This document shows, in pieces, positions 10,437 through 61,374 of a DNA stretch of 64,000 nucleotides. The stretch is from Candidatus Omnitrophota bacterium. GTDB lineage: Bacteria > Omnitrophota > Gorgyraeia > Duberdicusellales > 4484-171. The notes below the pieces were generated by a model. It was not told the origin of the DNA. It saw nothing but the letters and a program-made list of their open reading frames with translations, and did no database searches. Both the position numbers and the translations under genes were made by a program. Position 1 is the stretch's first letter, and each line of letters opens with the position of its first letter. The stretch lies in the NCBI GenBank assembly GCA_021735655.1, contig JAIPGM010000003.1:64001-128000 (forward strand), given 5' to 3'.

Positions 10437-10492
10437 GACATATATGAGTAAATGTGTTGCCAATACATTATAAATTGGTTAATATAAGGAAT

Positions 10493-10598
10493 TTAATCCC
10501 TCGCAGAAATACCCGGGCTTTAGCCCGAGGGATGAATGCTCTTTTAGGATTTCTGCTCGGGAGGAAGCCCCCGGCCTTTTAGTCCGGGGAGTCTTCAC
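10493..10598. repeat. Structured intergenic repeat, copy 1 (~105 nt, nested inverted repeats)
   Basis: It is near-identical to 33813-33912 over 'ttaatccctcgcagaaat.cccgggctttagcccgagggatgaatg' and 'ttctgctcgggaggaagcc'. The 3' hairpin is 'cccggcc-tttta-gtccgggg' here and 'ctcggtc-ttta-gaccgagg' in copy 2, a compensatory change. Confidence 0.6.
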
Positions 10599-10618
10599 AA
10601 ATAAAAGAGAGGTAATTT

Positions 10619-11071
10619 ATGAAAGAACGCATAGAACATAAAGGTGAACTTTTAGGCCTTATTATAAGAGGAGACTATAATCCTTCTCAGACTGAGTTTT
10701 TTACACCTAATGAATTTAAGCAACAGGTTGGATATATATTTTACGATACCGGTCAGGAGGTGGCAGCTCATATTCATCATAATATGCCGCGTAGCCTTGA
10801 GGGTACTTCTGAAGTTTTAATTCTTAAAACCGGCCATGCCCGGATTGATTTTTATTCTCAAGATAAACAATATTTAGAAAGCCGGGAGATATTTCCCGGT
10901 GATATTATTATTTTAGTTTTTGGTGGGCATGGTATTCATTTTTATGAACCAAGTTTACTTCTGGAAATAAAACAAGGTCCTTATATCGGAGTTCAGGAAA
11001 AGGAAAGGTTTCCCTCGGCTTACCCAGAGCAAGAAAAGCTAAAGAAGGATGGTGAACCATTATCCCCGTAA
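10619..11071 (+). CDS. Cupin-fold protein, possibly a WxcM/FdtA-like sugar-nucleotide 3,4-ketoisomerase
   Basis: It is 150 aa with His clusters 'AAHIHHNMPRS' and 'GGHGIHFYE'. It sits immediately upstream of a DegT aminotransferase, the FdtA-FdtB arrangement. The call is tentative. Confidence 0.35.
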   Translation: MKERIEHKGELLGLIIRGDYNPSQTEFFTPNEFKQQVGYIFYDTGQEVAAHIHHNMPRSLEGTSEVLILKTGHARIDFYSQDKQYLESREIFPGDIIILVFGGHGIHFYEPSLLLEIKQGPYIGVQEKERFPSAYPEQEKLKKDGEPLSP

Positions 11072-11079
11072 ATGAACCA

Positions 11080-12222
11080 TTGCTGCCGGGCAATGAATTA
11101 AAGTACGTTTCCGAGTGTCTTAAGACTAATTGGATTTCTTCTTCTGGCAGTTTTCTTGAGCGTTTCGAATCCGAATGGGCAAAGTATTGCGGTCAAAAAT
11201 ATGGTATTGCTGTTTGTAACGGAACGGTTGCTTTAGAGTTAGCTGTAGATGCTTGCAATTTTCCTAAGGGAAGTGAAATAATTCTACCTAGTTTTACTAT
11301 TATTTCTTGCGTCCAGGCGGTTACTAAAGCTGGTTGTAAGCCAGTGCTTGTTGATTGTGATTCGGAAACTTACTGTATGCAAGTAAGCCGGATAGAAGCA
11401 AAAATTACTGACCGGACCGTGGCAATTATGCCGGTACATATGTACGGACATCCAGTTGAAATGAAGCCAATAATGGACATTGCTCAGAAACACGGTCTTG
11501 TTGTTATTGAAGATGTGGCTCAGACCCAGGGAGGTGAATATCGAGGAAAAAAATGCGGTAGTTTTGGTAAGCTTTCCTGTTTTTCATTCTATGCAAATAA
11601 AAATATAACTACTGGCGAAGGAGGTATGGTTTTAACCTCTGATACTGTAATTGCTCAACGTTTGCGTAAGCTCAAAAATCTTTGTTTTTTAAAATCACCA
11701 AGATTTTTGCATTACCGGCTAGGCTATAACTATCGAATGACTAATATCCAAGCTGCTTTAGGCTTAGCCCAATTAGAGAATATCGATAGGTTCATTGAAC
11801 GTAAAATTGACATGGCCAAAAAGTATTCGCAGGCCTTAGTAAATTTACCGCTTCAATTACCTATGGAGCATAAATGGGCCAAGAATGTTATTTGGATGTA
11901 TAATGTGCTCCTTAAGGAAGATAAACAAAGCCAGGAGTTTTTTGAAAAAGACTGGAAAAATATAAGTCCAGAAGAGTATTTTAGATGGCCGGCATACAAG
12001 CTAATGAAAGTTTTAGAGCAGGCTGGAGTACAAACTCGTCCCTTTTTTATTGGAATGCATGAGCAGCCTGTGTTTCATGAGCAGGGGCTGTTTAAGGGTG
12101 AGAGATACCCGGTTACTGAAAAAATTGCTCGTTCTGGTTTTTATCTTCCTAGTGGCCAAGCGATAACTGATTTTCAGATAGATGAAGTTTCGCGAGCTTT
12201 AAAGGAGATATTTAATGAATAA
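11080..12222 (+). CDS. DegT/DnrJ/EryC1/StrS family sugar aminotransferase (ArnB/FdtB-like)
   Basis: It carries 'ELKYVSECLKTNWISSSGSF...CNGTVALELA' and the 'GYNYRMTNIQAALGLAQL' motif. Confidence 0.85.
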   Translation: MLPGNELKYVSECLKTNWISSSGSFLERFESEWAKYCGQKYGIAVCNGTVALELAVDACNFPKGSEIILPSFTIISCVQAVTKAGCKPVLVDCDSETYCMQVSRIEAKITDRTVAIMPVHMYGHPVEMKPIMDIAQKHGLVVIEDVAQTQGGEYRGKKCGSFGKLSCFSFYANKNITTGEGGMVLTSDTVIAQRLRKLKNLCFLKSPRFLHYRLGYNYRMTNIQAALGLAQLENIDRFIERKIDMAKKYSQALVNLPLQLPMEHKWAKNVIWMYNVLLKEDKQSQEFFEKDWKNISPEEYFRWPAYKLMKVLEQAGVQTRPFFIGMHEQPVFHEQGLFKGERYPVTEKIARSGFYLPSGQAITDFQIDEVSRALKEIFNE

Positions 12223-12967
12223 ACATTTATCACTTTCAGTAATTTTGCCTACTTACGATGAGGCTGAAAATATAAGACCTTTGATAGAAAGCATAGCTGA
12301 GGCCACTGAGCATCTTCAGGAAATAATAGTTGTTGATGATGATTCTCCTGATGGGACGGCTGATGTTGTTGAAGATATGATCGAAAGCGGAAAATACCCT
12401 TTTCTAAAACTGGAAAGAAGGCTTAAAAACCCTAGCTTAAGAAATAGTATTTGGAGAGGCATAGAGCTAGCTAGCGGAGATACTGTTGGCTGGATGGATT
12501 GCGATTTTTCCATGCCACCTAGATACTTTCCGGTACTTCTATCTTTAGTAAATGCAGATTATGATATAGCTTTAGGTTCTCGTTTTGTTTTAGGGGGTAC
12601 TTGGAGAGAAGAAACTTTGGAGGATTCAGATACGATTTTAGCGGCTTCAGGTAGCAGGCTGATGAATTTTTTTATTCAGATTTTTCTTGACCACAGAGTT
12701 AGGGATTATACCAGTGGTTTTGTAGTTGCCCGGCGCGATATTTTTAAACGGATTAAATTAAGGGGTGATTATGGTGAGTATTTCATTGATTTTATATATC
12801 GGGCCTTAAAGTTAAGGTATCGGGTGGTTGAAATTCCCTATGTTTGGGCTTCCAGAAGAAGGGGATATTCTAAAACAGGTAATAACCTTAAGGATTATTT
12901 TAAGCGAGGAAGAAAGTATATAGCTACAGTCTTGCGTTTGTTGCTTACGCGAAATTATGAATATTAA
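12215..12967 (+). CDS. Family 2 glycosyltransferase, polyprenyl-phosphate sugar synthase type (ArnC/DPM1-like)
   Basis: The N-terminus reads 'LSVILPTYDEAENIRPLIESI...IIVVDDDSPDGTADVV'. Confidence 0.8.
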   Translation: MNKHLSLSVILPTYDEAENIRPLIESIAEATEHLQEIIVVDDDSPDGTADVVEDMIESGKYPFLKLERRLKNPSLRNSIWRGIELASGDTVGWMDCDFSMPPRYFPVLLSLVNADYDIALGSRFVLGGTWREETLEDSDTILAASGSRLMNFFIQIFLDHRVRDYTSGFVVARRDIFKRIKLRGDYGEYFIDFIYRALKLRYRVVEIPYVWASRRRGYSKTGNNLKDYFKRGRKYIATVLRLLLTRNYEY

Positions 12968-14396
12968 AAAAAATATGAAACCTAAAGTTTTATTAATTAG
13001 TCCTCCTTTTGAGCATGAAGAAGAGTCAGTAGGCAAAACTAAAAGCATTATAAAGGTGTTAAATATTGTGCCGCCTTTAGGGATTGCTTATATTGCTGCG
13101 GTTTTAGAAAGAATCGGGATAGAAGTAAAAATAGTCGATTGTGCTACCGGAATTTCTTTCGACAGTCTTTTTAATAGCATAAAAATAGAATCTCCGGATG
13201 TAGTTGGTCTCACAGTTACTACTCCGGCATTTCTCAAAGCCAAAAAGGTAGCAGCTTTTGTCCGAAAAAATCTTCCTCAAGCAAAGATTTTGATCGGAGG
13301 CGCTCAGGTAACAGCTTTACCTAAAGAGACCCTAGAGACCGGTCTTTTTGATATTGGAATAATCGGTGAGGGAGAGTTAATTATTGAGCAGTTATTTAAA
13401 AATTATAAAAATGAAGGATTTGAGAATTTAAAAGAAGTTCCTGGTATTATTTATAGAGATGATCAAGGCATTCATCAAAATGAAAAACAGGCTTTTGTTG
13501 AGGATTTAGATTCTTTACCACTCCCGGCAAGGCATCTTTTGCCACATCCTAAATTTTATCGTCCTACTCCAGCTTCTTGTCGTAAAGTCCCTTATGTTGT
13601 GATTATGACTTCTCGTGGTTGTCCTTCAAAATGTACTTTTTGTGATCGAAAAATATTCGGTGAACGCTGCCGGATGAGAAGTGTAGCTAATATTTTTGAA
13701 GAGATAGAAGAGGTAGTATCAAAATATGGAGTAAAAGAGATAAGGTTTTTTGATGATACTTTTACTTTGGATAAAAAAAGAGTTTATAAAATTTGCGATG
13801 AATTTGAAAAGCGAAAACTTAAGCTTGCTTGGACCTGTCTTACCAAAGCAGCCTGCGTGGATGGTCCGCTACTAAAGCGAATGAGGCAGGTTGGTTGTTG
13901 GCAAGTTTTATATGGTTTTGAATCTGGTGATGACCGAGTCCTCAAACTGCTTAAAAAAGGCAATACTGTAGAGTTGAACAAAAGAGCAGTTCGTTTGACT
14001 AAAGAAGCTGGCCTTGAAGTGAGAGGGGATTTTATCGTTGGAACCCCTGGTGAAACTTGGGAGAGTTTAGAGAGAACCGTGCGTTTTGCTATAGATATGG
14101 ATTTAGATTACGCCCATTTTAATAAATTCATACCTTTTCCGGGAACAGAATTGTACCAGAATCTTAGGCAGCAGGGATATTCTTTTGATTTTTCTAAGAG
14201 TACTATATTAGACCACACTCAAATTCATTATGTTAATGAAGGTATGACTGCGGAGGGGTTTTCTCGATTTTTAGATAAAGCTAATAAAAGGTTTTACTTA
14301 AGATGGAAATATATATTAAAAAGACTATTTTCTATCCGAACTTTTCACCAGTTAAAAGGCCAAATAAACGGATTTTTTGCTATTTTTGAGATTTAA
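12957..14396 (+). CDS. B12-binding domain-containing radical SAM protein
   Basis: An N-terminal cobalamin-binding Rossmann region is followed by 'IMTSRGCPSKCTFCDRKIF', the CxxxCxxC motif. The downstream radical SAM core contains 'VLYGFESGDDRVLKLL'. Confidence 0.85.
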   Translation: MNIKKNMKPKVLLISPPFEHEEESVGKTKSIIKVLNIVPPLGIAYIAAVLERIGIEVKIVDCATGISFDSLFNSIKIESPDVVGLTVTTPAFLKAKKVAAFVRKNLPQAKILIGGAQVTALPKETLETGLFDIGIIGEGELIIEQLFKNYKNEGFENLKEVPGIIYRDDQGIHQNEKQAFVEDLDSLPLPARHLLPHPKFYRPTPASCRKVPYVVIMTSRGCPSKCTFCDRKIFGERCRMRSVANIFEEIEEVVSKYGVKEIRFFDDTFTLDKKRVYKICDEFEKRKLKLAWTCLTKAACVDGPLLKRMRQVGCWQVLYGFESGDDRVLKLLKKGNTVELNKRAVRLTKEAGLEVRGDFIVGTPGETWESLERTVRFAIDMDLDYAHFNKFIPFPGTELYQNLRQQGYSFDFSKSTILDHTQIHYVNEGMTAEGFSRFLDKANKRFYLRWKYILKRLFSIRTFHQLKGQINGFFAIFEI

Positions 14397-14397
14397 A

Positions 14398-15897
14398 ATG
14401 AAAAAAGACGTTGTTTTAATTTTACTTTGTTTTTTTGCAGTGGTAATCCTATTTACTAATTTAGGAGGCACCTATCTTTGGCAAGATGAAGCCACAACCG
14501 CAGTTTTAGGTAGGAACACGTTAAACTTTGGAATCCCTAAGGCTTTTGATGGAAAAAATCTTATTCTCAACATCTATGAAGATCCTTGTGTCGATAAGGG
14601 TTGGAAGTATGCTCCCTGGCTTCAATTTTATCTTGTGGCTGGATCATTTTGGTTATTAGGAGAAACCACCTTTGCTGCTCGCTTGCCTTTTGCTATATTT
14701 GGCGTTGGTGCTTTACTGTTGTGCTTTTTATTGGCCGAGCGGCTGTTTAAAAATAGATTAGTTTCAAGAATTGCTTGCGCCTTCATGGCTTTTTCCAGTA
14801 TTTTTTTCCTCTATATGCGTCAAGCCAGGTGGTATCCACTTACCACTTTTTTCACCCTTTGGCTGCTAGTTTCGTACTTAGATTTAGTCAAAAGTAAGAA
14901 GAAAGCTATTTTAGGTTTTGTGCTTAGCGCTGTATTACTTTTTCACTCTAATTACGGAATTTTCTTTTCCGTATTCTTAGGTCTAGCTTCTCATTTCTTT
15001 ATTTTTAACAGAAGTAACATTAAGGCGATTGGGATAAAAAAGATAGTATTTTGTCTTTTTATGATTACCATATTAACTTTACCTTCTTTATTGTATCTTG
15101 GTAGTGTGGAGTATAGCGGAAAGATAACCTTCGAGCGGACAGAGGACCATTTAGAATTCTATTTTCGTTCACTTAATAAGTATATTTTTCCTGTAGGATT
15201 TTTATTCTTCAGTTTAACTTTTTTTAGCTTCTTTAGGAAAAAAGTTTTTCCAATATTGGGCAAACCGTTAGATAAGCAAAACCTTTGGCTTTTGATTTGT
15301 GTATTTATTTCTACTATTTGTTTTCTTCTTTTGGCCGATGAGAGGCAATTAAGATATCTCGTGCATTTATTGCCAATTTTTTCTATTATCCTAGGAGTTT
15401 TAATTGTCGGATGGTTAAAGATAAATAAAATAGCTGCGGTTTTACTTTTTGTTATTATTTGTTTTACAAATATATTTAATCGGGGAAGTTTCTCTCATAA
15501 TAAACTATCGATTCATCCGGTTAATATAGTTTATGAATTAACCCATGATTATGACGGTCCGGTAGAAGGAATAGTAAAGTTTTTAAATCGCCAGGCAAAG
15601 CCAACAGATACGGTTAAGCTAATTTATGGTGATTATGCTACGATTTTTTATACTGATCTTCGTGTCGACAATAGTTGCTTTAAGTGTAAAACCTTTCCAG
15701 AATGGATTGTTATCAGAGATGGTTGGTTTCCTTTGAAGAATTTAGACAAAGATTATCTTAGAGAGATAAATGAGAGATATCAAAAAATAATACTGGATTA
15801 TCCTGACATAATGTGGGAGAATCGGCCCGACCCTGGTTATCATAAATTCAAAACAGTATCAGATTGGCCGCCGGTTGTAATATATAAGAAAAAATGA
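14398..15897 (+). CDS. GT-C family glycosyltransferase (ArnT / dolichyl-phosphate-mannose protein mannosyltransferase-like, GT39/GT83)
   Basis: The start is placed at the ATG giving 'MKKDVVLILLCFF'. It is a polytopic membrane protein with the N-terminal 'LWQDEATTAVLGRNTLNFGIPKAFDG' typical of ArnT/PMT_2. Confidence 0.65.
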   Translation: MKKDVVLILLCFFAVVILFTNLGGTYLWQDEATTAVLGRNTLNFGIPKAFDGKNLILNIYEDPCVDKGWKYAPWLQFYLVAGSFWLLGETTFAARLPFAIFGVGALLLCFLLAERLFKNRLVSRIACAFMAFSSIFFLYMRQARWYPLTTFFTLWLLVSYLDLVKSKKKAILGFVLSAVLLFHSNYGIFFSVFLGLASHFFIFNRSNIKAIGIKKIVFCLFMITILTLPSLLYLGSVEYSGKITFERTEDHLEFYFRSLNKYIFPVGFLFFSLTFFSFFRKKVFPILGKPLDKQNLWLLICVFISTICFLLLADERQLRYLVHLLPIFSIILGVLIVGWLKINKIAAVLLFVIICFTNIFNRGSFSHNKLSIHPVNIVYELTHDYDGPVEGIVKFLNRQAKPTDTVKLIYGDYATIFYTDLRVDNSCFKCKTFPEWIVIRDGWFPLKNLDKDYLREINERYQKIILDYPDIMWENRPDPGYHKFKTVSDWPPVVIYKKK

Positions 15898-16916
15898 GCT
15901 GCGACATTATTATTCCGGTTTGGAATCTGATTGATTTTACAAGAGATTGTATAGAGAGCGTATTGAGCCAGACAGAATACCCTTTTCATTTGATTGTTAT
16001 TGATAACGGCAGCGATAGTGAAACTAAAGAATATTTATTCAAGTTGGCTCAACAAAGAAAGAACGAAATTACCCTGATTAGAAATGAAAATAATCTAGGA
16101 TTTATTAAAGCAACTAATCAGGGAATAAGAGCCTCTAAGGCCCCTTATTTATGTCTTTTAAATAACGATACAATAGTCACTAAGGGTTGGCTTAGAGAAA
16201 TGGTTAAATTGGCAACTAGCAGAGAAGATATAGGCATAGTCAATCCTAGTAGTAATACTTTAGGTTGTAATCCAAAGCGCGGAGATTCTTTGGAGTCGTT
16301 TGCCGAGGAGCGGAAATCTTACTCGGGAGAATATTCTGAACTAGCCTGGGCAACTGGATTTTGTATGTTGATTAAACGTAAAATTATTGAAGAGGTAGGG
16401 TTGCTTGATGAAGTATATGGAATGGGTAATTTCGAAGACGCTGATTTTTGCAAAAGAGCTCAAAAACAAGGTTATCTATCTGTTTGCGCCAAGGCTGCCT
16501 ATGTTCATCATCAAGAAAGACGTTCATTTATAAGATTTAAGAAATTCAACCAGAACTTTGAGGACAATAAACAGACCTTCTATGCTAAATGGGGAAGCTT
16601 AAAGCGCATACTTTATGTTTTGAATAAAGAAGACCATCTTTATATAGAAAGAATAGGAGCCGAAGCTTTAAAATTGGCCCGTGAGGGAAATATTGTTTGG
16701 ATTTTTTCAAAAGGCAGAGATAAGTTAGAGATTAGAAAGCACTCTAATATTTATGTCTATAATCGCCCAAAGCCTTTTTTTAATTTAACTAATTTTTTGA
16801 TTATTTTGAAACGTAAGAAGAAATTTGATAAGATATACGTAAATAGCAAGAGTTATGCTAAAAGGTTAAACAGTTTTAAATATATTCATAAAGCAGAGGT
16901 GATCTGCGCAGAATAA
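15894..16916 (+). CDS. Family 2 glycosyltransferase
   Basis: The N-terminus reads 'DIIIPVWNLIDFTRDCIESVLSQTEYPFHLIVIDNGSDSET'. A 'DAD' motif follows further downstream. Confidence 0.75.
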   Translation: MSCDIIIPVWNLIDFTRDCIESVLSQTEYPFHLIVIDNGSDSETKEYLFKLAQQRKNEITLIRNENNLGFIKATNQGIRASKAPYLCLLNNDTIVTKGWLREMVKLATSREDIGIVNPSSNTLGCNPKRGDSLESFAEERKSYSGEYSELAWATGFCMLIKRKIIEEVGLLDEVYGMGNFEDADFCKRAQKQGYLSVCAKAAYVHHQERRSFIRFKKFNQNFEDNKQTFYAKWGSLKRILYVLNKEDHLYIERIGAEALKLAREGNIVWIFSKGRDKLEIRKHSNIYVYNRPKPFFNLTNFLIILKRKKKFDKIYVNSKSYAKRLNSFKYIHKAEVICAE

Positions 16917-16966
16917 GGCCTTATATTTTAAAAGAGCATACAAAGAAGCCTTTAAGGGAGAAAAAA

Positions 16967-17974
16967 ATGAAGAGAATTGGAATTATCGGTTGTGGACATT
17001 GGGGCCCGAATTATCTGCGTAATTTTAGTCAGTTAGAAGATTCATCAGTATTAGTTTGTTGTGACTTATCAAAAGATAATTTAGATAAGGTTAAGAAACA
17101 CTACAGATCGATAGAGGTTGTTGAAGATTACAAGGATGTGCTTAGGGACAAGCGTATTGATGCGGTTGTCATTGCTACTCCTGCTCGAACTCATTATAAA
17201 ATCGCTAAAGATGCACTTTCAGCCGGTAAGCATATTTTATTAGAAAAGCCAATGGCTTTAAACTATGCAGATTGTAAAAAGTTGGTCAATTTGGCAAAAG
17301 AAAAGAAAAGAATCCTTATGGTTGGTCACACTTTTTTGTTTAATCCGGCTGTAAGAAAGTTGAAGGATTATATAAAAAAAGGTGCTGTGGGAAAGATTTA
17401 TTATTTGCATGCAACCAGGACACATTTAGGTTTAGTCCGTAACGATGTAAATGTGAGTTGGGATTTAGTACCACATGATATATCTATATTTTCTTATTTA
17501 TTAGGAGAAATGCCGATTAGTGTTTCAGCTTTGGGCGGATCCTTTTTGAGAAGTCCGAAACAAGATGTAGTGTTTATTAATTTAATTTACCCGAAGGGTA
17601 TAATTGCTAATATTCATGCTAGCTGGGCCGATTCCAATAAGGTTAGAGAAATTCAGGTAATCGGCAGTCGGGCCAGAGTGGTTTTTGATGATTTAAATAG
17701 TATGGAAAAGATAAAACTGTACAAGAAAGGAATATCTGTAGATAAGTCATATGCCAATTTTGGTGAATTCCAATTACTTTTAAGAGACGGCGATATTCTT
17801 AGTCCCAAAATTGGTCCCGAGGAACCGCTACGACTTCAATGCCAACATTTTTTAAACTGTCTTAAAAACGGAAAGAAGCCATTTGTTGATGGAGAAGACG
17901 GTGCGAGTGTTGTTAAGATAATGAATGCAATAAATAAATCTTTAGTATTGGGAGCTAGGGTGGTTAAAGTATGA
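16967..17974 (+). CDS. Gfo/Idh/MocA family NAD-dependent sugar oxidoreductase (WbpB/GnnA-like)
   Basis: It carries 'KRIGIIGCGHWGPNYL' and the consensus 'EKP' motif. Confidence 0.8.
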   Translation: MKRIGIIGCGHWGPNYLRNFSQLEDSSVLVCCDLSKDNLDKVKKHYRSIEVVEDYKDVLRDKRIDAVVIATPARTHYKIAKDALSAGKHILLEKPMALNYADCKKLVNLAKEKKRILMVGHTFLFNPAVRKLKDYIKKGAVGKIYYLHATRTHLGLVRNDVNVSWDLVPHDISIFSYLLGEMPISVSALGGSFLRSPKQDVVFINLIYPKGIIANIHASWADSNKVREIQVIGSRARVVFDDLNSMEKIKLYKKGISVDKSYANFGEFQLLLRDGDILSPKIGPEEPLRLQCQHFLNCLKNGKKPFVDGEDGASVVKIMNAINKSLVLGARVVKV

Positions 17975-18579
17975 AAACGAAGAATTTCTTAATTGGAAAA
18001 AATTCTAAAATTGATAAATCGGTAATCTTAGGTGAGAAAACAGGCAGGAAAATTAAGATTTCAAAGACGATTATCGGAAAAGATGCAAGGGTAAGGTCAA
18101 ATACGGTTATTTATTCAAATACTAAGATTGGCGATGGATTGGAGACAGGGCACAATGTTGTGATTCGCGAACAAAACAAAATCGGCAATAATTTAAGTAT
18201 TTGGAATAACTCTACCATTGATTATGGATGTGAAATTGGCAATAATGTTAAGATCCACGCCAATACTTATGTAGCTCAGTTTACTGTCATTGAAGATGAT
18301 GTTTTTCTAGCTCCCGGGGTAATGATTGCAAATGATCCTCATCCTATCTGTACAAAATGCATGAAAGGCCCATTAATAAAAAAAGGGGCACGGATCGGGG
18401 TGAATGTTACGCTTTTACCTAATATTGTAATTGGGGAAAATTCTTTAGTTGGAGCCGGCAGCGTTGTCACTAAGGATGTTGCGGCTAACGTGGTAGTTTT
18501 TGGCTCACCGGCAAAAGTAGGCGGAAGAATTAAAGATTTAAAGTGCAAAGCAAGAATAAAGGATAGAGCCTATGAGTAA
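17971..18579 (+). CDS. Hexapeptide-repeat (left-handed beta-helix) N-acetyltransferase (WbpD/PglD-like)
   Basis: Tandem '[LIV]G.N..I' hexapeptide repeats run through most of the 202-aa protein. Confidence 0.7.
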
Positions 18580-19693
18580 TAATAAGATGAACGTTCCTTT
18601 TGTGGATTTACAGATTCAATATCGTAAGTTGAGCAAGGAAATCAATCAACGGTTAATTGAAACAGTTGAAAGCGGTTCTTTTATTTTAGGTGAAAGTGTT
18701 CAAAAGTTTGAGCAGGAATTTGCTAATTATTGTGGCGCAAAACATGCTGTAGGTATTGCTTCGGGAACTGCTGCTTTATTTTTGTCTCTAAAAAGCTTAG
18801 GAGTCGGCAGGGGAGATGAAGTAATTACTCCGGCAAATACATTTATTGCAACAGCCTTAGCTATTTATTATACCGGAGCAAAGATTATCTTAGTAGACAT
18901 AGATGAAGAAACCTATAATTTAGATATAAAAAAGACAGAAGCGGTAATAAATAGCAAAACCAAAGCTATCCTACCAGTGCATCTTTATGGTCAACCGATA
19001 GATTTAGAGCCTTTACTTGCTTTAGCTAAGAAACACAACTTAATAGTTGTTGAGGATGCTTGCCAGGCTCACGGTGCTGAATATAAAGGCAAAAAGGTGG
19101 GAGGATTCGGTAACGCTGCAGCCTTTAGCTTTTATCCTGGTAAAAATTTAGGTGCTTTTGGTGATGCCGGTATAGTAGTGACTAACGATGAAAAGGTTAA
19201 AGATGAATTGATCATGTTGAGAAACTATGGCCAGAAACAAAAGTATCATCATTTAGTAAAAGGGTATAATTCTCGTTTAGATACAATTCAGGCAGAAATA
19301 TTGAGAGTTAAGCTTGGCTATTTAGACCAATGTAATGAAGAGCGAAGAAAAAGTGCTCAAGTTTATAAAACCTTGCTTCAAAGCATCAGTGACCGTATCT
19401 TAATTCCTAAAGAAATGTCATCAGTAAAACATGTTTGGCATCTTTATGTAATTAGGGCAGAAAAAAGAGATGACTTACAGGAATATCTTAAAAAGGCAGG
19501 GATTAGTACCGGTATACATTATCCTATTCCGATTCATTTGCAGCCGGCTTTTTCTGATTTAGATTATAAGAAGGGAGACCTTCCTGTTACAGAAAAGACT
19601 GCTGATCAGATTCTTTCTTTGCCGATGTACCCAGGGTTAAAAGAAGAGCAAATTGAATATGTTGTGAAAAAAATAAGTGATTTTTTGCAGTAA
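18572..19693 (+). CDS. DegT/DnrJ/EryC1/StrS family sugar aminotransferase (WbpE/GnnB-like)
   Basis: It carries '[13 protein letters not shown]...GTAALFLSL' and '[14 protein letters not shown]'. Confidence 0.85.
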
Positions 19694-19709
19694 GCAACCT
19701 AGTTGATAA

Positions 19710-20807
19710 ATGAAGCTATTTTTTAAATCTTGGCAGAAAAAAAGTAAAAAGAAGAGAATTCTTTTTGCTGGAGTCTGCCATGCTAATTTCATACAGTTTA
19801 GGCCAATTTATGAGATCCTTAAGCAGGATCCAAGAGTTGAAATTTTATTCTCTGGTATGTATCAAAGTAAAGACCGGCCGCGTGAACTCTATAAACCTTT
19901 TAATATAGATAAGAAATTCATCATAAGAGAAAAGTTCGCAAAAACTTTGAGTTTTGACATCTATATTAGCCCAGATTATCACATGATTGACAATAACTAT
20001 TCTTCAACTATTCAGTTTTTTCACACCACTTCTTTTAGAAATTTCTCAGTTAGTGAAGAGGCAAAAAGCTTTGATCAGATTTTTTTAATTGGGCCGTACA
20101 TGAAGCGTAAGTTTATCGAGGCAGGTATTTTTGAAGTTGATGATCCGAGATTAAAAGAAGTAGGCATGCCGCAAACAGATGCTCTTTTAGATAATATCGA
20201 CACTGGTTTGTCTGAGAGACTTGGCTTAGATAAGAGTCTTCCGACTATACTTTACGCTCCAGTCTGGGCGCCGATAGAGAGCTTTCTTGAAGATGTTCAA
20301 ACAACACTTAAAACTTTAACCTCAATTAAGGCTAATCTTCTTCTTAAGTTGCACGATAAATTTTATTATCAACAGGTAAATAAAATTAGATGGCGGGAGT
20401 TTTTGAATTTGGTGCTAAGCGAGAATAAGAATGTACATTTAATAGATGATTTTGATATTATACCTTACATGAAAATTAGTGATTTGCTTGTCAGCGACGT
20501 TAGTGCTGTTGTACATCAGTTTTCTATATTAGATAAGCCAATAGTATGCATGAAGGTAGATGTTGATGAGTTTAAAAAGTTCTGGCCAGGGCTTGATCAT
20601 AAAGCCTATTTAGATCGCGCGGTAATAGAAGCTTCTCAAGGAGAGGCTTTAAAAGAGGCAGTTTTGGGAGAACTTGCTAATCCTGGCAATTTGAGTCAAA
20701 AACGGATAGCCATGAGTAAAGAGTATTTTTATAATATTGGGTTTTCTGCAAAATGCGCAGTTTCGCAAATTTATCAGTCTTTTAATCTAAAGAATACAGA
20801 TGAATAA
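19710..20807 (+). CDS. CDP-glycerol glycerophosphotransferase family protein (TagB/TagF-like), tentative
   Basis: 'PTILYAPVWAP' resembles the TagF 'ILYAPT[WF]R' motif. 'DLLVSDVSAVVHQFSILDKPIV' resembles the TagF C-terminal motif. Confidence 0.45.
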   Translation: MKLFFKSWQKKSKKKRILFAGVCHANFIQFRPIYEILKQDPRVEILFSGMYQSKDRPRELYKPFNIDKKFIIREKFAKTLSFDIYISPDYHMIDNNYSSTIQFFHTTSFRNFSVSEEAKSFDQIFLIGPYMKRKFIEAGIFEVDDPRLKEVGMPQTDALLDNIDTGLSERLGLDKSLPTILYAPVWAPIESFLEDVQTTLKTLTSIKANLLLKLHDKFYYQQVNKIRWREFLNLVLSENKNVHLIDDFDIIPYMKISDLLVSDVSAVVHQFSILDKPIVCMKVDVDEFKKFWPGLDHKAYLDRAVIEASQGEALKEAVLGELANPGNLSQKRIAMSKEYFYNIGFSAKCAVSQIYQSFNLKNTDE

Positions 20808-21903
20808 AAAGCCGCTTTCCTCAAAAAATAGTTTCTTAGTTAAACTGAAAGTCAGCCAAGAAATCCTTATGGATGCCGAGCAAATAGCTATAGGTGGGTA
20901 CGCTCCAGTTGATGGTTTTATGGGAAAGGCTGACTTTGAATCAGTTTTGAATAATATGCGCCTTGTAAAAGGTGATGTTTGGACTTTGCCAATAGTGTTA
21001 GATATAAGTAAAAAAGAAGCAGCATCAATTAAAATCGGGGATGAAATATTGCTTGGTGACGGCCAGGATCAGGAAAATTTTCTTTTTTCTGTGGAAGATA
21101 TTTATGAACATGATAAATCTTTGTATTGCGATAAGGTTTATGGTACTAAAGATGTAGCTCATTCAGGAGTAGCAAAGGTGCTTAAGATGGGAGAGGTCCT
21201 TGTAGGGGGCCGGGTTATATCGGTTTTAAATAATTTTGATTTTGATATGCGTAAATTCACCATGACCCCGAAAGAGACAAAAGCCCAGTTTGAAAAAAAT
21301 AATTGGAAAACGGTTGTTGCTTTTCATACCCGGAATGTGGTGCACAGAGCCCATGAGTATCTTCAGCGCTGTGCTATGGAATATGCCGATGGAATTTTGA
21401 TCCATCCTGCGGTTGGCTTTACAAAACCCGGTGATTTCAAGAAAGAGCTTATAATAAAGGGCTATCAAAGTTTAATTGATAACTATTATCCAAAAAATAA
21501 AGCTCTTCTCTCGGCTTTGGGCATAGGCATGAAATTTGCCGGGCCAAGAGAAGCTGTATTTCATGCCTTGGTGCGGAAAAATTATGGTTGTACACATATA
21601 ATTATTGGTAGAGATCATGCTGGCGTAGGCGGATACTATGAGAAGTATGCCGGACATAAGATATTTTCTAGTTTGCCATCTTTGGGCATAACCCCTTTAT
21701 TATTTAAGGGACCGTTTTATTGCAATAAATGTGAAGCTATGGCTACCGAAAGCACCTGCTCGCATGATGAGTCTTATAGGTCAGAAGTCAGCGGAACATT
21801 AGCTCGTAAATTCATAAAGGAAAAGAAAAAGCTCCCTAAGTGGCTGATGCGTCCTGAAATCGCAAACTTGCTTGAAGACCTCGGTGAAAGCGTTTTTTCT
21901 TAA
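20800..21903 (+). CDS. sat: Sulfate adenylyltransferase (ATP sulfurylase)
   Basis: It has the 'VVAFHTRNVVHRAHEYL' QTRN/HxxH region and the 'IIGRDHAGVGGYY' motif. Confidence 0.8.
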   Translation: MNKKPLSSKNSFLVKLKVSQEILMDAEQIAIGGYAPVDGFMGKADFESVLNNMRLVKGDVWTLPIVLDISKKEAASIKIGDEILLGDGQDQENFLFSVEDIYEHDKSLYCDKVYGTKDVAHSGVAKVLKMGEVLVGGRVISVLNNFDFDMRKFTMTPKETKAQFEKNNWKTVVAFHTRNVVHRAHEYLQRCAMEYADGILIHPAVGFTKPGDFKKELIIKGYQSLIDNYYPKNKALLSALGIGMKFAGPREAVFHALVRKNYGCTHIIIGRDHAGVGGYYEKYAGHKIFSSLPSLGITPLLFKGPFYCNKCEAMATESTCSHDESYRSEVSGTLARKFIKEKKKLPKWLMRPEIANLLEDLGESVFS

Positions 21904-21926
21904 AACTTAAATAAGGAGTAAACAAG

Positions 21927-22469
21927 ATGTTAATAATTTCACAACATGCAAGATTGTTGCATATTCCTTTTCCTGATACTGCTGTATTTAGGGTAAATGT
22001 TGCTTGGATTAAAAGTCAGGAAGAGTTATTCAGCTTACTAAAGCAAATTAAGAATGATGTATTTTTGGATTTTCCTGAAGGGCGATTCAAACCGCCGATC
22101 CCTATTTTAGGTTTAGACGATTTATTGGGAGCCATGGATAGGTTTGACAATATAAAATATTTTGGGGTGACCAATGTGACAGCAGCCGAACAAATTATTG
22201 AAATGAGAAAGAAAGTTCCTCAGAGAGTAATATTAATACCTAAGGTGGAGTCAAGAGAAGGAATAGACAATTTAGAAAAGATACTTGGCCAGCTAGAAAA
22301 GGGTGAAAAATTTATAATGCTAGATAAAGAGGATCTATATACTGATTTAAAGGAGCATAAGGAATTATTTGAACAATATGTTCAGTTGGTAAAAGATAAA
22401 TGCAGGAAAAATAATATTAGCGTGCTTGAGTTGCAAGGTGTGATATTTGCAGCGAATGAAGACTTATAA
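21927..22469 (+). CDS. Hypothetical protein with degenerate pyruvate-kinase/PEP-utilising TIM-barrel-like motifs
   Basis: 'FRVNVAW', 'LIPKVESREGIDNLEKIL' and 'IMLDKEDLYTDL' echo the PK-barrel 'RxNFSHG', 'KIENQEGVxNxDEIL' and 'IMVARGDLGVEI' segments. The protein is only 180 aa. Confidence 0.3.
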   Translation: MLIISQHARLLHIPFPDTAVFRVNVAWIKSQEELFSLLKQIKNDVFLDFPEGRFKPPIPILGLDDLLGAMDRFDNIKYFGVTNVTAAEQIIEMRKKVPQRVILIPKVESREGIDNLEKILGQLEKGEKFIMLDKEDLYTDLKEHKELFEQYVQLVKDKCRKNNISVLELQGVIFAANEDL

Positions 22470-22481
22470 GAGGATTATGGA

Positions 22482-23231
22482 ATGTCGGATATATCCGTAG
22501 TTATCGTTACCGAGAATGCTCAAGACACTATCAAAGACTGTCTTGATTCAGCAAGCTGGGCTGATGAAATTGTTGTTGCAGATGCTGAAAGCAGTGACCA
22601 AACAATTGAGATTGTTACTAAATATACAGATAGAATAGTCAAGATCGACCCACAGCTTAATTCTGGACAGCGGTGGAATCAAGCTATAGCCGCAGCAAGT
22701 AAAAATTGGATATTTTTGCTTGAATCCGACAAAAGAATACCGTTGGCTCTAAGGCTTGAATTAGAAAAGAGAGTTAAAGAAAATAAGTTAAAGGATGCAG
22801 ATGGGTATTTAATTAATACAAGAAATTATTTTTTGAACCATTGGGTTAAGACGGCCGGTTTTTATCCCGATCGTAAATTATATATTTTTAGAAAAGGTAT
22901 GGCTAAATTCCAAGAGCGACAACGTGGCTGTATTGTTTTTGAAGGCAAGATTGATAATCTAAACGGGTATATTGAACATTACGTTTATAGATCTTTAGAA
23001 CAGTGTTTTTCTAAAGTAAATAAAGAGTCAGATAATTTGGCAGAAGAATTTTTTGGCCAGGGGTTAATTTTTAAAAAGCGGTTTGTAATCACAAAACCCT
23101 TGAGAACATTTAAAAAACAATACTTTCGTCATCGGGGCTCAAAGCAAGGGATGGCAGGGTTGTTGATTTCTCTTGTCGCTGCTTTTGAATGTTTTTTTGT
23201 CTATATAAAGGTGTGGGCAATTAGGAGATAG
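22482..23231 (+). CDS. Family 2 glycosyltransferase (LPS-core WaaE/KdtX-like)
   Basis: The N-terminus reads 'ISVVIVTENAQDTIKDCLDSASWADEIVVADAESSDQT'. It is about 250 aa. Confidence 0.75.
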   Translation: MSDISVVIVTENAQDTIKDCLDSASWADEIVVADAESSDQTIEIVTKYTDRIVKIDPQLNSGQRWNQAIAAASKNWIFLLESDKRIPLALRLELEKRVKENKLKDADGYLINTRNYFLNHWVKTAGFYPDRKLYIFRKGMAKFQERQRGCIVFEGKIDNLNGYIEHYVYRSLEQCFSKVNKESDNLAEEFFGQGLIFKKRFVITKPLRTFKKQYFRHRGSKQGMAGLLISLVAAFECFFVYIKVWAIRR

Positions 23232-23232
23232 A

Positions 23233-23997
23233 GTGAAAACAAGGTTGAGTTTTTCAGCGGTTATAATCACTAAGAATGCAGAGGCTAAGATAAGAAATTG
23301 CCTCGAGAGTATAAAATGGGCAGATCAGGTGGTAGTGGTTGATGGATTCTCGACCGATTCGACGGTCGATATTTGTAAAGAGTATGGCGCTAAGATCGTT
23401 CAAAGAAAATTCGAAGGTTTTGATAAAGAAAGAAACGCCGGCATTGAACATGCTTCTGGAGATTGGATTCTTCAGTTAGACGCTGATGAGGTAGTGAGCG
23501 AAGATATGCGCAAGGCTGTAAAGGAAGTGCTTAGTGGTGATGAAAAATATAATGCCTATAAATTTCGCAGGCAGAATTTCTTTTTAGGTAAAGCCATGCG
23601 GTATGGAGGATGGTACCACTACTCTGCTCATTTTTTAAGGAAAGGCAAGGCTCATTATGAAGGCAGCATTCATGAAACTCTTGTTGTTGATGGTCCGATT
23701 GGTAAGTTGGAGGCAGCAGTAGAGCATTATCCTTTTGACAATATATCGGATTTCATCAGGCGTCAAAACAGATACACTAACCTTCAGTCACAAAGGATGC
23801 TCGATGATTTAGGCATTAAAGATGATAAATTTATAAAAAAGAATCTTTTAAAACGAATGCGTAAGGTATTTTGGAAGACTTACATAAAGAAAAAAGGGTT
23901 CAAGGAAGGAATGCATGGTTTAGTATTCAGTATTCTTTTTGTTTGGGTGGAATTTATTAAATGGGCAAAGTATTGGGAACTAGTCAGTAAAAAGTGA
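23233..23997 (+). CDS. Family 2 glycosyltransferase (paralog of 22482; GTG start)
   Basis: The N-terminus reads 'FSAVIITKNAEAKIRNCLESIKWADQVVVVDGFSTDST'. It is a tandem paralog. Confidence 0.7.
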   Translation: MKTRLSFSAVIITKNAEAKIRNCLESIKWADQVVVVDGFSTDSTVDICKEYGAKIVQRKFEGFDKERNAGIEHASGDWILQLDADEVVSEDMRKAVKEVLSGDEKYNAYKFRRQNFFLGKAMRYGGWYHYSAHFLRKGKAHYEGSIHETLVVDGPIGKLEAAVEHYPFDNISDFIRRQNRYTNLQSQRMLDDLGIKDDKFIKKNLLKRMRKVFWKTYIKKKGFKEGMHGLVFSILFVWVEFIKWAKYWELVSKK

Positions 23998-33249: not shown

Positions 33250-33816
33250 ATGAATATTGCTAATAAGCTTACAATCTTGAGAATATTATTGGCTTTTGTC
33301 TGTATTGGCTTTATTTTAGTTAACAGTTTTTCATCGTTAGTGATTGCTCTTATTATTTTTATCATTGCTTCAGTAACTGATTTTTTAGACGGCTACTTAG
33401 CTCGTAAGTACAATTTAATTTCCGATCTAGGAAAACTTCTTGATCCGATAGCGGATAAGATATTAATTATTGGTGTATTTTGTGCTTTTTTAGAGTTAGG
33501 AGTTGTTAATGCCTGGATGGTAAGCTCAATTATGCTTCGTGAGTTTATTATTACTGGTTTGCGTTTTTACGGTTTGAGCAAGGGGGTTGTTTTGGAGGCA
33601 AGGCGCCTAGGCAAACATAAAACCTTATCTCAAGTGATCGGGCTGGGAGTCATCCTTCTTACTCTTATTTTGTTTAAGGTTCTACCTGAGAGCAAAATGG
33701 TAATTCTTCTTTATCACTTGTTCATACCGGTTTTAATGTGGTATATCGTAGGTATTACTTTGCTTTCGGGAGTTTATTATTTTTGGGTAAACCGTCGGAC
33801 AATAAGAACCTTTTAA
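33250..33816 (+). CDS. pgsA: CDP-diacylglycerol--glycerol-3-phosphate 3-phosphatidyltransferase
   Basis: It carries the CDP-alcohol phosphatidyltransferase motif 'DFLDGYLARKYNLISDLGKLLDPIADKIL' on a multi-TM protein. Confidence 0.85.
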   Translation: MNIANKLTILRILLAFVCIGFILVNSFSSLVIALIIFIIASVTDFLDGYLARKYNLISDLGKLLDPIADKILIIGVFCAFLELGVVNAWMVSSIMLREFIITGLRFYGLSKGVVLEARRLGKHKTLSQVIGLGVILLTLILFKVLPESKMVILLYHLFIPVLMWYIVGITLLSGVYYFWVNRRTIRTF

Positions 33817-33912
33817 TCCCTCGCAGAAATCCCCGGGCTTTAGCCCGAGGGATGAATGTACATTGTTTTCTGCTCGGGAGGAAGCCTCGGTCTTTAGACC
33901 GAGGAGCTTCAC
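33813..33912. repeat. Structured intergenic repeat, copy 2 (begins at the pgsA stop codon)
   Basis: See copy 1 at 10493-10598: the core is shared and the 3' hairpin shows compensatory substitutions. A further hairpin 'agattttt-cttcg-aaaaatct' follows at about 33920-33940. Confidence 0.6.
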
Positions 33913-34018
33913 TGAAACTTAGATTTTTCTTCGAAAAATCTCTAGTTGAATTAGTCCTGAGGAGCGAAGCGACGAAGGATAATTCCTGAGTATAGGCAGG
34001 GTTTATTATTGAAGTTAT

Positions 34019-35095
34019 ATGAGCAGTAAAAAAACAGTTTTAGTTACCGGTTCTGCCGGTTTAATTGGTTCAGAGTGCGTTCTTTTTTTTGCAGCAAAAG
34101 GGTTTAAGGTTATTGGTGTAGACAATAACATGAGAAAAAAGCTCTTTGGCGACGAAGCTTCAATCCAATGGAATAAGAATTTCTTGTTGGAGAAGGTTCC
34201 TGAGTATGTTCATTATGATATTGATATTAGGGACCAAAAAAAGATACAAGAATTATTTAATCAATATAAGTTTGATTTAATTATTCACGCTGCCGCTCAA
34301 CCTTCTCATGATTGGGCAGTGAAAGACCCTAATCTTGATTTTACGATCAATGCTAACGGCACCTTAATTTTGCTTGAGAATTTTAGGAAGTATGCTCCGG
34401 AGGCGGTTTTTATATTTATATCTACTAATAAGGTTTATGGGGACAGGCCTAATAAATTACCTTTCATAGAGCTTCCGATGAGGTATGAATTACCTTTTGA
34501 TCATCAATATTACTCAGGCATAGACGAAGCTTTGAGCATAGATAATTGTCTTCATAGTTTGTTTGGTGCTTCGAAAGTAGCCGCAGATATTCTTGTTCAG
34601 GAATATGGAAAATACTTTGACTTAAAAACCGCTGTATTCAGGGGTGGGTGTTTAACTGGTCCGGCTCATTCTGGGGCTGAACTTCATGGATTTTTGTCAT
34701 ATCTAGTGAGATGCTGTATAACTGAGAAGAAATACACTATCTATGGCTATAAAGGTAAGCAGGTCAGGGATAATATACATTCTTATGATTTGGTGAATGC
34801 GCTTTATAATTTTTATTTAAAGCCTAATTACGGAGAGGTTTATAATATTGGAGGAAGTCGGTTGTCTAATATTTCGGTATTGGAAGCTATTGAGTTGTGT
34901 GAAAAAGTATCTGGCAAAAAATTAATTTATGAATATACAGATAAAAGCAGAAAAGGAGACCATATTTGGTGGATAAGTGATGTTTCAAAATTTAAAAGTC
35001 ATTATCCCGAATGGGAGATAACCTATAATATTGAAAAGATAATTGAAGAGATATTTACTCAACAGCAAAAAATTCAATATACTTATGGAACCTAA
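34019..35095 (+). CDS. Extended SDR family NAD-dependent epimerase/dehydratase (CDP-paratose 2-epimerase-like)
   Basis: It has '[12 protein letters not shown]' (GxxGxxG) and the general RfbE-like architecture. The expected '[PS]YGxSK' catalytic motif reads 'LFGASK', with F in the Tyr position. Confidence 0.65.
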
Positions 35096-44208: not shown

Positions 44209-44912
44209 GGAAATTGGTAATATTTTTATTATTAGTGGTGAGTTTTCAGTTTTTAAGCTATGGTCAAAGTATTAAGGAACGCTTTAAGGGGCAGGATAAG
44301 CTAATTTATGAGGTTTACTACAATGGGATGTTTTCCGGTCATATCTATTGGAGCTATAAAGGGACTGAAAAGGTTGAAGGCGGGCTGGCTGATGTGATCC
44401 ACGTAAGTTCTGATACTAAGATTTTAGGCTTACTGGATTTAACCAGCGATGAAGATGTTTTCCTTGATTCGGAAAATCACCTTCCGCTTAAAGTAAAGCG
44501 AAATATAGTTATGTTTGGCAAGAAAGAGCTGATTGATGAGATTTACGATCAGGGAAAAGGTTTTGTGCGGTTAATTATAAGAGGCGATGAAGCCAGAGAG
44601 GAAATTATTTCTCAGGATAAGCCAATTCATAATATTTTGGCCTTGCTTTATTTTTTCCCGCAAAATGTTAAGTTAGAAAAAGATCGATGGATGAACTTCA
44701 ATCTTCCTACCCAAAAGATAAAGATAAAATTTATCAAAGAGCGACCTCTAAAAACAGATACTGGAGAAGTTGATACTTATTTTTTAATTGGTAGGGGGGC
44801 CAAGCGCTTTAGTCTCTGGATGGATAAAGTTACCCGCATGCCTCTGCGTCTTGAGTTTGTTTCTCTTCTAGGAAAGGTTAGCATTGTGAGAGCCGAAGAA
44901 AACCAGCCTTAA
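44205..44912 (+). CDS. Secreted hypothetical protein (DUF3108-like), translationally coupled to the patatin gene
   Basis: It has a 4-nt ATGA overlap with the upstream stop. The signal peptide reads 'MRKLVIFLLLVVSFQFLSYGQ', followed by a beta-rich remainder. Confidence 0.4.
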   Translation: MRKLVIFLLLVVSFQFLSYGQSIKERFKGQDKLIYEVYYNGMFSGHIYWSYKGTEKVEGGLADVIHVSSDTKILGLLDLTSDEDVFLDSENHLPLKVKRNIVMFGKKELIDEIYDQGKGFVRLIIRGDEAREEIISQDKPIHNILALLYFFPQNVKLEKDRWMNFNLPTQKIKIKFIKERPLKTDTGEVDTYFLIGRGAKRFSLWMDKVTRMPLRLEFVSLLGKVSIVRAEENQP

Positions 44913-45514: not shown

Positions 45515-45683
45515 CAAAATACCTCCTTTTAAAGCATTGTATCATTGATTGAAAAAATTTTAAATTAGATTGATTGGTTATAATTTGTTATTTAGGATTA
45601 TAGGAAATGAGGATAGTTTTGACATTCTAGAGGAAAAGATTGAAAGTCTGCCAGTGATGCTGTATCCAGGAGGTTAGTTTATA

Positions 45684-46493: not shown

Positions 46494-46506
46494 CAAAATA
46501 CCTCCT
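46393..46506. repeat. 114-bp segment 100% identical to 45414-45527 (pilin RBS + first ~33 codons)
   Basis: Direct comparison of the two loci shows identity over 'ttctcaattgctttaaaagcattgggtgcgattattgcagctagaatggcaatgatcgcgataactacgattagttcaataagcgtaaatgactttttcatcaaaatacctcct'. Flanking sequence is unrelated. Confidence 0.8.
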
Positions 46507-46550
46507 GTAAAAAAGTATATCATTAATTGGGGGTAATTTCAAATCGAAGT

Positions 46551-61329: not shown

Positions 61330-61374
61330 GCAATATTTTTAGGTCAAATATAAGAATATGATAAAAAAGGAAGC

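Follow-up and report, generated by a model that had tools for sequence, protein, structure and literature searches.

A structured repeat of ∼100 nt occurs twice in a 64 000-nt stretch of a Candidatus Omnitrophota genome (contig JAIPGM010000003.1, positions 64 001–128 000; the whole stretch is hereafter called the window). Both repeats are probably copies of a gene-less miniature element derived from the IS200/IS605 family of insertion sequences (IS), of the kind known as PATE (palindrome-associated transposable element), in which a left and a right IS end are fused and which would be mobilized in trans. The two copies, at 10492–10598 (copy A) and 33812–33912 (copy B), both lie on the + strand. 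IS200/IS605 elements move as single-stranded DNA (ssDNA; 'peel and paste') and have no inverted repeats. The assignment to this family was made because the element displays (i) neither inverted termini nor a consistent target duplication, (ii) a conserved pentanucleotide just outside it, (iii) a conserved right terminus and (iv) two subterminal hairpins, in direct orientation, on one strand. The compensatory base changes observed in the repeat are also better explained by the ssDNA hairpins, and by the pairing of guide bases with end motifs, of IS200/IS605 transposases. Most likely, therefore, the element is a further member of the known PATE kind, of which we found no earlier description for Omnitrophota; searches of the accessible literature for the repeat sequence and for Omnitrophota noncoding RNAs or repeats yielded nothing.

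Two copies in the window and a family of 17

The original prediction, made from the letters of the window alone, was of two distant copies of ∼100 nt sharing near-identical blocks, and this was borne out. The first block (10492–10538 and 33812–33858; 47 nt) is 98% identical between copies A and B, and the second (TTTCTGCTCGGGAGGAAGCC) is identical at 20/20 positions and can be extended to 29 nt at 86% identity. A 27-mer of the first block has two exact matches in the window against 0 expected (100 shuffles). No third copy was detected in the window by 27-mer match, repeat finding or covariance model. The GC content of the repeat unit is 52–53%, as compared with 33–41% for the window. Overall identity between copies A and B is 81%; that of copy B to the copies at three loci of the family described below (L003, L006 and L013) is 92%. 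Since copy B is closer to copies from other genomes and metagenomes than to copy A, the pair did not arise by local duplication, which agrees with the initial view that no recent duplication had taken place.

Seventeen full-length copies could be aligned end to end; they come mostly from Candidatus Omnitrophota metagenome-assembled genomes (MAGs) and single-amplified genomes and from metagenomes. Nine loci were identified with an exact 23-mer among bacterial and archaeal genomes (one genome per species) and 6 further loci with a gapped pattern in metagenomes. Both search patterns fix the 3′ arm of hairpin P2 and the ATGAA motif, and the second one also fixes part of the 3′ strand of helix P1 (both helices are described below). 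Seven of the 9 genome loci are labelled Candidatus Omnitrophota, 4 of these being in a single MAG. The other two carry the labels Saccharibacteria (L002) and Planctomycetia (L004); these labels are unconfirmed and could be due to mis-binning, to mislabelling or to horizontal transfer of the element. The window itself is assigned to Omnitrophota by the homologues of its pgsA, and two of its proteins are 100% identical to proteins of an NCBI Omnitrophica MAG. Pairwise identity among copies ranges from 67 to 95% and the GC content of the hosts from 35 to 59%. Copy number is low (2 in the 64-kb window, 4 in one MAG and 1 at each other locus), and no copy was found in viral contigs (three pattern scans) or in plasmids and phages (blastn). 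A REP/MITE-like repeat was among the options put forward at the outset, and a mobile miniature element is also our preferred explanation.

One short-read contig (L001; Logan SRR12088349_55422), which stems from a different assembly of this organism, begins inside copy A, 78 nt before the gene for a 150-amino acid protein. A contig break at this position is as expected for a repeat: the element breaks assemblies, and MAGs are likely to understate its copy number.

Ends of the element and insertion sites

In the 17-copy alignment the ends of the element are sharp: conservation extends from TTTAA-TCCC to CT(Y)CAC and the flanks are unrelated. No terminal inverted repeats were found in the alignments, the ends (TCCCTCG... 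and ...GCTYCAC) not being inverted relative to each other, and there is no open reading frame (ORF) within the element. No consistent target duplication was observed either; the bases after CAC do not consistently repeat the left flank. The 5′ flank is TTTAA in 13 of the 17 copies and is one change away from it in the remaining 4. Three right-end motifs occur, TTCAC (6 copies), TCCAC (9) and TCCTC (2), with a T immediately beyond in 12/17 copies. The mismatches between TTTAA and TTCAC are at positions 3 and 5 and nowhere else.

In copy A, TTTAA (10492–10496, + strand), the putative transposon-adjacent motif and insertion target, stands directly 5′ of a 102-nt body (10497–10598, +) which runs from left to right end, from the conserved TCCC to the conserved CAC. 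In copy B the motif (33812–33816, +) precedes a 96-nt body (33817–33912, +). The covariance model scores of these two bodies are 102 and 122.5 bits and their ssDNA fold z-scores are −3.3 and −5.7, respectively. The TTTAA of copy B is host sequence, namely the final Phe codon of pgsA plus its stop codon; this ORF (33250–33816) codes for 188 amino acids, as it does in relatives, and element-free relatives end pgsA in ...ACTTTTTAA or ...ACTTTTTGA. A motif that belongs to the host coding sequence is as expected for a transposon-adjacent motif. The original prediction had envisaged that the repeat might turn out to be the terminal inverted repeat of a known IS. This is not literally the case: the copies look like fused ends of IS200/IS605 type, and no parent IS was found.

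An element-free version of the copy B site is provided by the closest relative (L034; pgsA 90% identical), in which pgsA is followed by a 36-nt spacer and the same epimerase gene as in the window. When the two sequences are aligned, the extra DNA of the window begins exactly at the TTTAA that ends pgsA. It amounts to 161 nt, i.e. the element plus 61–65 nt that do not belong to the family, and the whole stretch is flanked by TAAT. The DNA beyond copy B (33913–33977, +), which lies outside the conserved family, is missing from L034 according to the alignment and has no second occurrence in the window. An AT-rich hairpin (AGATTTTTC-TTC-GAAAAATCT) lies within it, and its far end is a degenerate stretch resembling an inverted left end (CGACGAAGGATAAT, to be compared with the reverse complement CTGCGAGGGATTAAA; alignment and inspection by eye). 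This segment could be a decayed inverted copy or a captured flank.

The TAAT on both sides of the extra DNA, together with a far end that looks like an inverted left end, would suit a small mobile repeat of another type, either a classical DDE MITE generating a short duplication (TAAT, TAA or TA) or a REP/REPIN moved by a RAYT. So would the flanks of the L005 copy (TTTAG on the left and a right flank beginning with TAG), the presence of a truncated DDE_Tnp_1 ORF 23 nt from the L009 copy and the solo hairpins resembling P2 or P3 near the L006 and L015 copies. However, the 100-nt unit lacks terminal inverted repeats and a GTAG-type REP head, the bases after CAC do not form a consistent duplicate of its left flank, and its two hairpins are direct rather than inverted. 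No RAYT-like ORF was found in the sequence examined (tblastn), the L009 transposase is incomplete and has no connection with the remaining 16 sites, and the TTTAA/TTCAC(T) pattern is specific to IS200/IS605 elements. We consider a repeat of this other type unlikely and prefer a miniature element of the IS200/IS605 family.

Two of these loci deserve a brief description. At L009 (oriented), the element occupies 609–715 and the ORF found 23 nt downstream (738–1400) codes for a 220-amino acid DDE_Tnp_1 protein (IS4/IS5-type) that lacks its N-terminal part; their proximity is probably an incidental pile-up of mobile DNA. Solo hairpins like the element's own (CCTCGGGC-TTTA-GCCCGAGG) adjoin full copies at L015 (7736–7812, − strand) and L006 (3325–3378, − strand). 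The one at L015, which is followed by T7 and lies just past the stop codon of a YfhO-like gene, resembles an intrinsic terminator. Both could be decayed element ends or belong to an independent hairpin family.

Hairpins, long-range helix and covariation

RNA and DNA energy parameters give one and the same consensus fold, with three helices. P1 is a long-range 14-nt helix in which TCCC-(TC)-GCAGAAA pairs with TTTCTGC-(TC)-GGGA. P2 is an inner hairpin, CCCCGGGC-TTTA-GCCCG(A)GGG, separated from the 3′ strand of P1 by a variable linker. P3, the 3′ hairpin, has a lower stem of 4 bp (GRAG/CTYC) and an upper stem of 8 bp, with a purine bulge between them. P2 and the P3 upper stem are alike (CCYYGGNC-TTYA-GNCCRRGG) and both lie on the same strand, in direct orientation; P2 starts ∼14 nt from the left boundary and the P3 upper stem ends 7–9 nt from the right boundary.

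In copy A, the left-end subterminal hairpin P2 (CCCGGGC-TTTA-GCCCGAGGG) was located by folding at 10512–10531 (+) and is preceded by GCAGAAAT (candidate left guide AAA/AAAT). The 3′ strand of P1 (TTTCTGC-TC-GGGA; 10550–10562, +) is complementary to TCCC-TC-GCAGAAA at 10497–10509 and links the left and right halves; the helix was found in the minimum-energy fold of this copy as well as in the consensus fold. The right-end module (10564–10598, +) consists of the putative guide GAAG (10564–10567), the hairpin (10568–10589), a bulge, CTTC (10593–10596) and the end motif TTCAC (10594–10598). The corresponding features of copy B are the left-end hairpin (33831–33851), the putative guide GAAG (33881–33884), the right-end hairpin (33885–33904) and the end motif TTCAC (33908–33912).

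Over the 17 copies, 94.3% of the cells are paired, as against 32–54% when the partners are slid by 1–3 columns. Cells changed on both sides number 21, versus 9.3 ± 2.7 in shuffled alignments, and none of 500 shuffles reached 21. Five pairs are compensated; all are in P3, and 4 of them are upper-stem positions. P2 has 96.5% pairing and no compensatory change, and the invariance of its 3′ arm carries no weight (it is fixed by the search patterns). P1 has 98% pairing, again with no compensatory change and with three G-U pairs only. As they are never doubly changed, P1 and P2 are neither proved nor disproved by covariation. For the 3′ hairpins of the two window copies, the initial claim was that they differ in sequence yet are perfectly paired. 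Both do still pair, and the 8-bp upper stem of copy B is perfect; the hairpin of copy A, however, contains one mismatch or bulge. The claim of compensatory change in this hairpin stands, with one clear case between copies A and B (C-G to U-A) in addition to the 5 pairs seen over the family (0/500 shuffles).

In 17/17 copies the tetranucleotide GRAG, directly in front of the right hairpin, covaries with CTYC at the end motif. GGAAG accompanies TTCAC in 6/6 cases, and the other 11 copies have G at the covarying guide position together with TCC(A/T)C. Pair 76–106 is GC in 11 copies and AU in 6, and is never broken. On the left, AAA(T) in front of the hairpin complements TTT(A)A; both are nearly invariant and hence uninformative on covariation. 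Which guide bases pair with which motif is a putative assignment, made for the left side by analogy.

Strong folds were also obtained at the RNA level (z = −2.7 to −6.3). Non-Watson–Crick cells comprise 13 G-U and 14 A-C over the 17 copies, and neither strand is therefore favoured. P1 may serve to hold both ends together or may be a leftover guide-RNA scaffold from the right end of tnpB-bearing relatives. It is very unlikely, in our opinion, that the right half is still an orphan guide-RNA gene, i.e. the leftover omega RNA/reRNA scaffold of tnpB-bearing IS605 elements. If it were, P1 and the strong conservation across hosts would reflect RNA-scaffold constraints, the 16–20 nt next to TTCAC would serve as guide in transcripts that extend beyond this motif, and each copy could direct a TnpB, or a nuclease-dead TnpB-like repressor, encoded elsewhere. 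The copies found 20–106 nt upstream of glycan genes might then control surface-sugar genes or guard the junctions against loss.

Genomic context and the possibility of a noncoding RNA

Upstream of copy A, at a distance of 56 nt, is a Glyco_trans_1_2 gene; 20 nt downstream comes the 150-amino acid ORF, which is followed by a DegT gene. Copy B begins in the pgsA stop codon and is located 106 nt before a gene for an SDR epimerase. These contexts are those originally described, except that the 150-amino acid ORF, said to be a 'cupin', has no significant Pfam or PDB match. Among the 17 copies, about 10 point in the same direction as their neighbours, 6 run antisense to the genes on both sides (L005, L010, L011, L013, L015 and L016) and 1 lies between convergent genes. 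The neighbours have unrelated functions: glycosyltransferases, a RumA-type methyltransferase, ExbD, a beta-CASP nuclease, a beta-lactamase, an acylphosphatase, UvrC and the truncated DDE transposase.

A small RNA or leader tied to sugar-nucleotide genes had been among the original proposals. In its broader form, this explanation invokes a structured noncoding RNA that would be either a cis-acting leader or antiterminator of polysaccharide and sugar-nucleotide operons, or a horizontally spreading small RNA or ribozyme family. The strong RNA folds and the covarying 3′ hairpin are in line with it, as are conserved unpaired positions (the UC/UC internal loop and AUGAA, the latter fixed by the search patterns) and segments that, as read from the sequence, can pair in mutually exclusive, switch-like ways. 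In addition, four copies (A, B and those at L004 and L007) are upstream of co-oriented glycan genes. Several observations are nevertheless difficult to reconcile with such an RNA: the 6/17 copies antisense to both neighbours and the one between convergent genes, the equal occurrence of G-U and A-C mismatches (13 versus 14), the lack of a conserved upstream promoter and of a T-run after the element, and its absence from orthologous sites. No element copy was found at the loci of the closest homologues of the downstream epimerase. Moreover, the 5′ TTTAA, being host coding sequence at copy B, is no transcript-level motif. Finally, there is no match to a known Rfam family even at permissive thresholds: Rfam 15 gave no gathering-score match in the window and, with E up to 10, only chance-level matches for the copy A region and four other copy-bearing loci. 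We regard a noncoding RNA as improbable, and the idea of a strand-specific RNA attached to sugar-nucleotide genes is not upheld by these data.

More specific identities were considered as well. A cis-regulatory leader of sugar-nucleotide genes was rejected, given the mixed orientations and neighbours and the epimerase and glycosyltransferase homologue loci without a copy. A promoter or terminator role was also rejected, no conserved promoter or T-run being present. Hammerhead, twister, group II intron domain 5, tRNA-like minihelix, C/D box, CsrA-sponge and SRP RNA were dropped after inspection by eye (misfit of motif order or geometry), with no Rfam support for any of them. A tRNA/tmRNA scan of the window found none.

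Junctions with exchanged glycan genes

Relatives with 81–82% pgsA identity are syntenic with the window over >20 kb (xseA-xseB-rpsO-pnp-ftsK-rodZ-miaB-pgsA-pgpA). In these genomes pgpA comes directly after pgsA (2–4 nt apart), with neither the element nor the epimerase in between. No copy was found in ∼95 kb of pgsA-region DNA from relatives, or in ∼190 kb from relatives overall. Since L034 has the epimerase without the element, the insertion of the epimerase and that of the element were separate events. The region of copy A shows a comparable arrangement: in relatives the orthologous glycosyltransferase gene is followed by a GT2 or a MetW-like gene, where the window has the element and a 13.5-kb glycan block. 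Both window copies are thus at junctions with recently exchanged DNA; the case of L034 indicates that the element is not required for such exchange.

These junctions might suggest a site-specific recombination or cassette-junction site, similar to an integron attC or to JUMPStart, that marks glycan-gene swaps. Copy B precedes an epimerase inserted between pgsA and pgpA and absent in relatives, and copy A precedes a 13.5-kb block that replaces the single GT2 gene of L028. Yet L034 possesses the epimerase insertion without the element, neither insertion has a second site at its right edge, and no integrase gene was found among the window ORFs scanned. Furthermore, other copies flank unrelated housekeeping genes, the window copies are 23 kb apart, amid housekeeping genes, and sequence as well as structure is conserved across hosts, unlike in attC. 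We find this hypothesis highly improbable. The simplest explanation for the location of the element in front of sugar genes is that this compact genome offers few free intergenic gaps, and that these lie at junctions with recently exchanged glycan genes.

The glycan block itself (∼10600–23990) takes the place of a single GT2 gene that, in the relatives L028 and L029, is bordered by the orthologous Glyco_trans_1_2 and GT9 genes. It comprises the 150-amino acid ORF, two DegT genes and genes for B12-radical SAM, PMT_2, GFO_IDH, hexapeptide transferase, Glyphos_transf, ATP-sulfurylase and GT2 proteins. L030 and L031 have a MetW-like methyltransferase gene at this position, which is a hot spot of glycan-gene replacement. 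The SDR epimerase gene (34019–35095; CDP-paratose 2-epimerase-like) stands between pgsA and pgpA, an insertion shared by L034, and its 3′ end appears to overlap the likely pgpA start (ATG near 35085). In L034, an early in-frame TAA close to the 3′ end limits the pgsA call (416–964) to 182 amino acids. The L032 contig ends (1007–1030) in an Illumina adapter (AGATCGGAAGAGCACACGTCTGAAC) right after pgsA, an assembly artefact in the public record.

The window contains other repeats, of 124–146 nt, at 45410–45533 and 46389–46512 (direct, 98% identical) and at 61336–61481 (inverted, 72–84%). They correspond to the 5′ ends of three paralogous type IV pilin-like genes with an N-terminal methylation motif (44909–45517, − strand; 45888–46523, − strand; 61375–61992, + strand). 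In the relatives L017 and L021 a DUF3108-like gene is directly followed by one for a GCD14-type methyltransferase, which suggests that the two neighbouring pilin genes were inserted in the lineage of the window. The first ORF of the window is a partial gene, truncated by the window border.

Proposed mode of transposition

According to our model, a Y1 (HUH-type) TnpA encoded elsewhere in the genome would bind both top-strand hairpins in ssDNA and would find its cut sites through short internal guide bases that pair with the flanking motif and with the end motif. The left guide (AAA/AAAT), in front of the left hairpin, would pair with the flanking TTTAA, and the right guide (GRAG), in front of the right hairpin, with the end motif CTYC-AC. 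The excised strand would leave as a circle and be pasted 3′ of another TTTAA, without duplication of the target. The conserved hairpins would then reflect the constraints of ssDNA cut-and-paste and not a regulatory RNA of the neighbouring sugar genes.

Several points weigh against this interpretation. A tnpA, RAYT or tnpB gene was detected neither close to a copy nor elsewhere in the 376 kb examined (tblastn; Pfam scan of the window ORFs), and the 23-mer scan of species-representative genomes recovered no full-length parent IS with these ends. The sole empty-site comparison (L034) is exact on the left only, with 61–65 extra nt on the right. IS200/IS605 elements are expected to prefer the lagging-strand template; the GC skew of the element strand is positive for 10 copies and negative for 7, in a test that is weak (short fragments, confounded by gene orientation). 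As to the guides, the pairing of the left one with TTTAA is nearly invariant, so that it gives no covariation signal, and the GRAG/CTYC covariation at the right end may reflect a single subfamily split; it also fits a plain helix extension rather than the non-canonical scheme of IS608. P1, the 14-nt long-range helix, is no described feature of the IS200/IS605 family. Lastly, an identity of 67–95% over hosts of 35–59% GC is high for selfish DNA and implies horizontal spread or an added function.

If the element is an IS200/IS605 derivative, what looked like the signal of a covarying structured RNA is explained by an ssDNA transposition constraint, a warning for RNA-motif discovery in metagenome bins. 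The element also predicts a TnpA, and possibly a TnpB, recognizing TTTAA in these genomes or in their mobile elements. In the window, it marks recent gene-exchange junctions in a cell-envelope glycan region and explains the short-read contig breaks that occur there.

Comparison with known systems

IS608 of Helicobacter pylori is the structural paradigm for TnpA (Barabas, 2008; Guynet, 2009). Its hairpins are reportedly ∼19 and 10 nt from the ends, its motifs 4 nt long (TTAC and TCAA) and its pairing partly non-canonical. Like IS608, the element has asymmetric subterminal hairpins (∼19/10 nt for IS608 and ∼14/7–9 nt for the element), and in both the bases 5′ of each hairpin foot complement the cleavage motif, which is putative for the element. 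Unlike in IS608, the right-end pairing of the element looks like a simple lengthening of the helix by 4 bp, which stops 2 nt short of the boundary.

The enterobacterial ERIC and REP-type repeats are, like the element, short, structured, intergenic and found in either orientation. ERIC sequences are conserved between species and show compensatory stem changes, and REPs have a GTAG head and are moved by RAYTs. However, ERIC is one long imperfect palindrome, and neither ERIC nor REP has the TTTAA/TTCAC boundary pattern.

That pattern is found in IS605-type elements. In Sulfolobus islandicus, the insertion site of IS605 elements is TTTAA and their terminus TTCAC, the longer form TTCACT being partly conserved (PMC11043419); for ISGst2 of G. 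stearothermophilus, the outside motif is TTTAT and the right-end motif TTCAC (PMC10055086). The outside motif of the ISGst elements is distinguished from their end motif by positions 3 and 5, and internal DNA guides pair and covary with both (PMC10055086). The boundary motifs of the IS605-type element of S. islandicus REY15A (tnpB7) and of ISGst2 match those of the element described here, and both motif pairs differ at positions 3 and 5. Their hosts are an archaeon and a Firmicute, respectively. These elements, of 1.3–2 kb, encode TnpA and/or TnpB and a guide RNA, unlike ours, and the similarity to one S. islandicus right-end fragment (from a primer) is weak beyond the end motif (8/12 bases by eye).

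The closest parallel is with PATEs, gene-less miniature IS200/IS605 elements of Haloquadratum walsbyi and Geobacillus stearothermophilus (PMC3119063, PMC10055086); in the latter species, gene-less PATE-like copies are mobilized in trans (PMC10055086). In contrast to PATEs, no cognate relative bearing tnpA or tnpB was found for the element and its two halves are joined by a 14-nt long-range helix; it is also low-copy in the data examined, yet conserved over hosts of very different GC content. In common with it, PATEs are short, ORF-less, multi-copy and intergenic, have left and right ends that each carry a subterminal hairpin on the same strand, lack inverted termini and target duplication, and display a fixed 5′ pentanucleotide with a related pentanucleotide at the right end.

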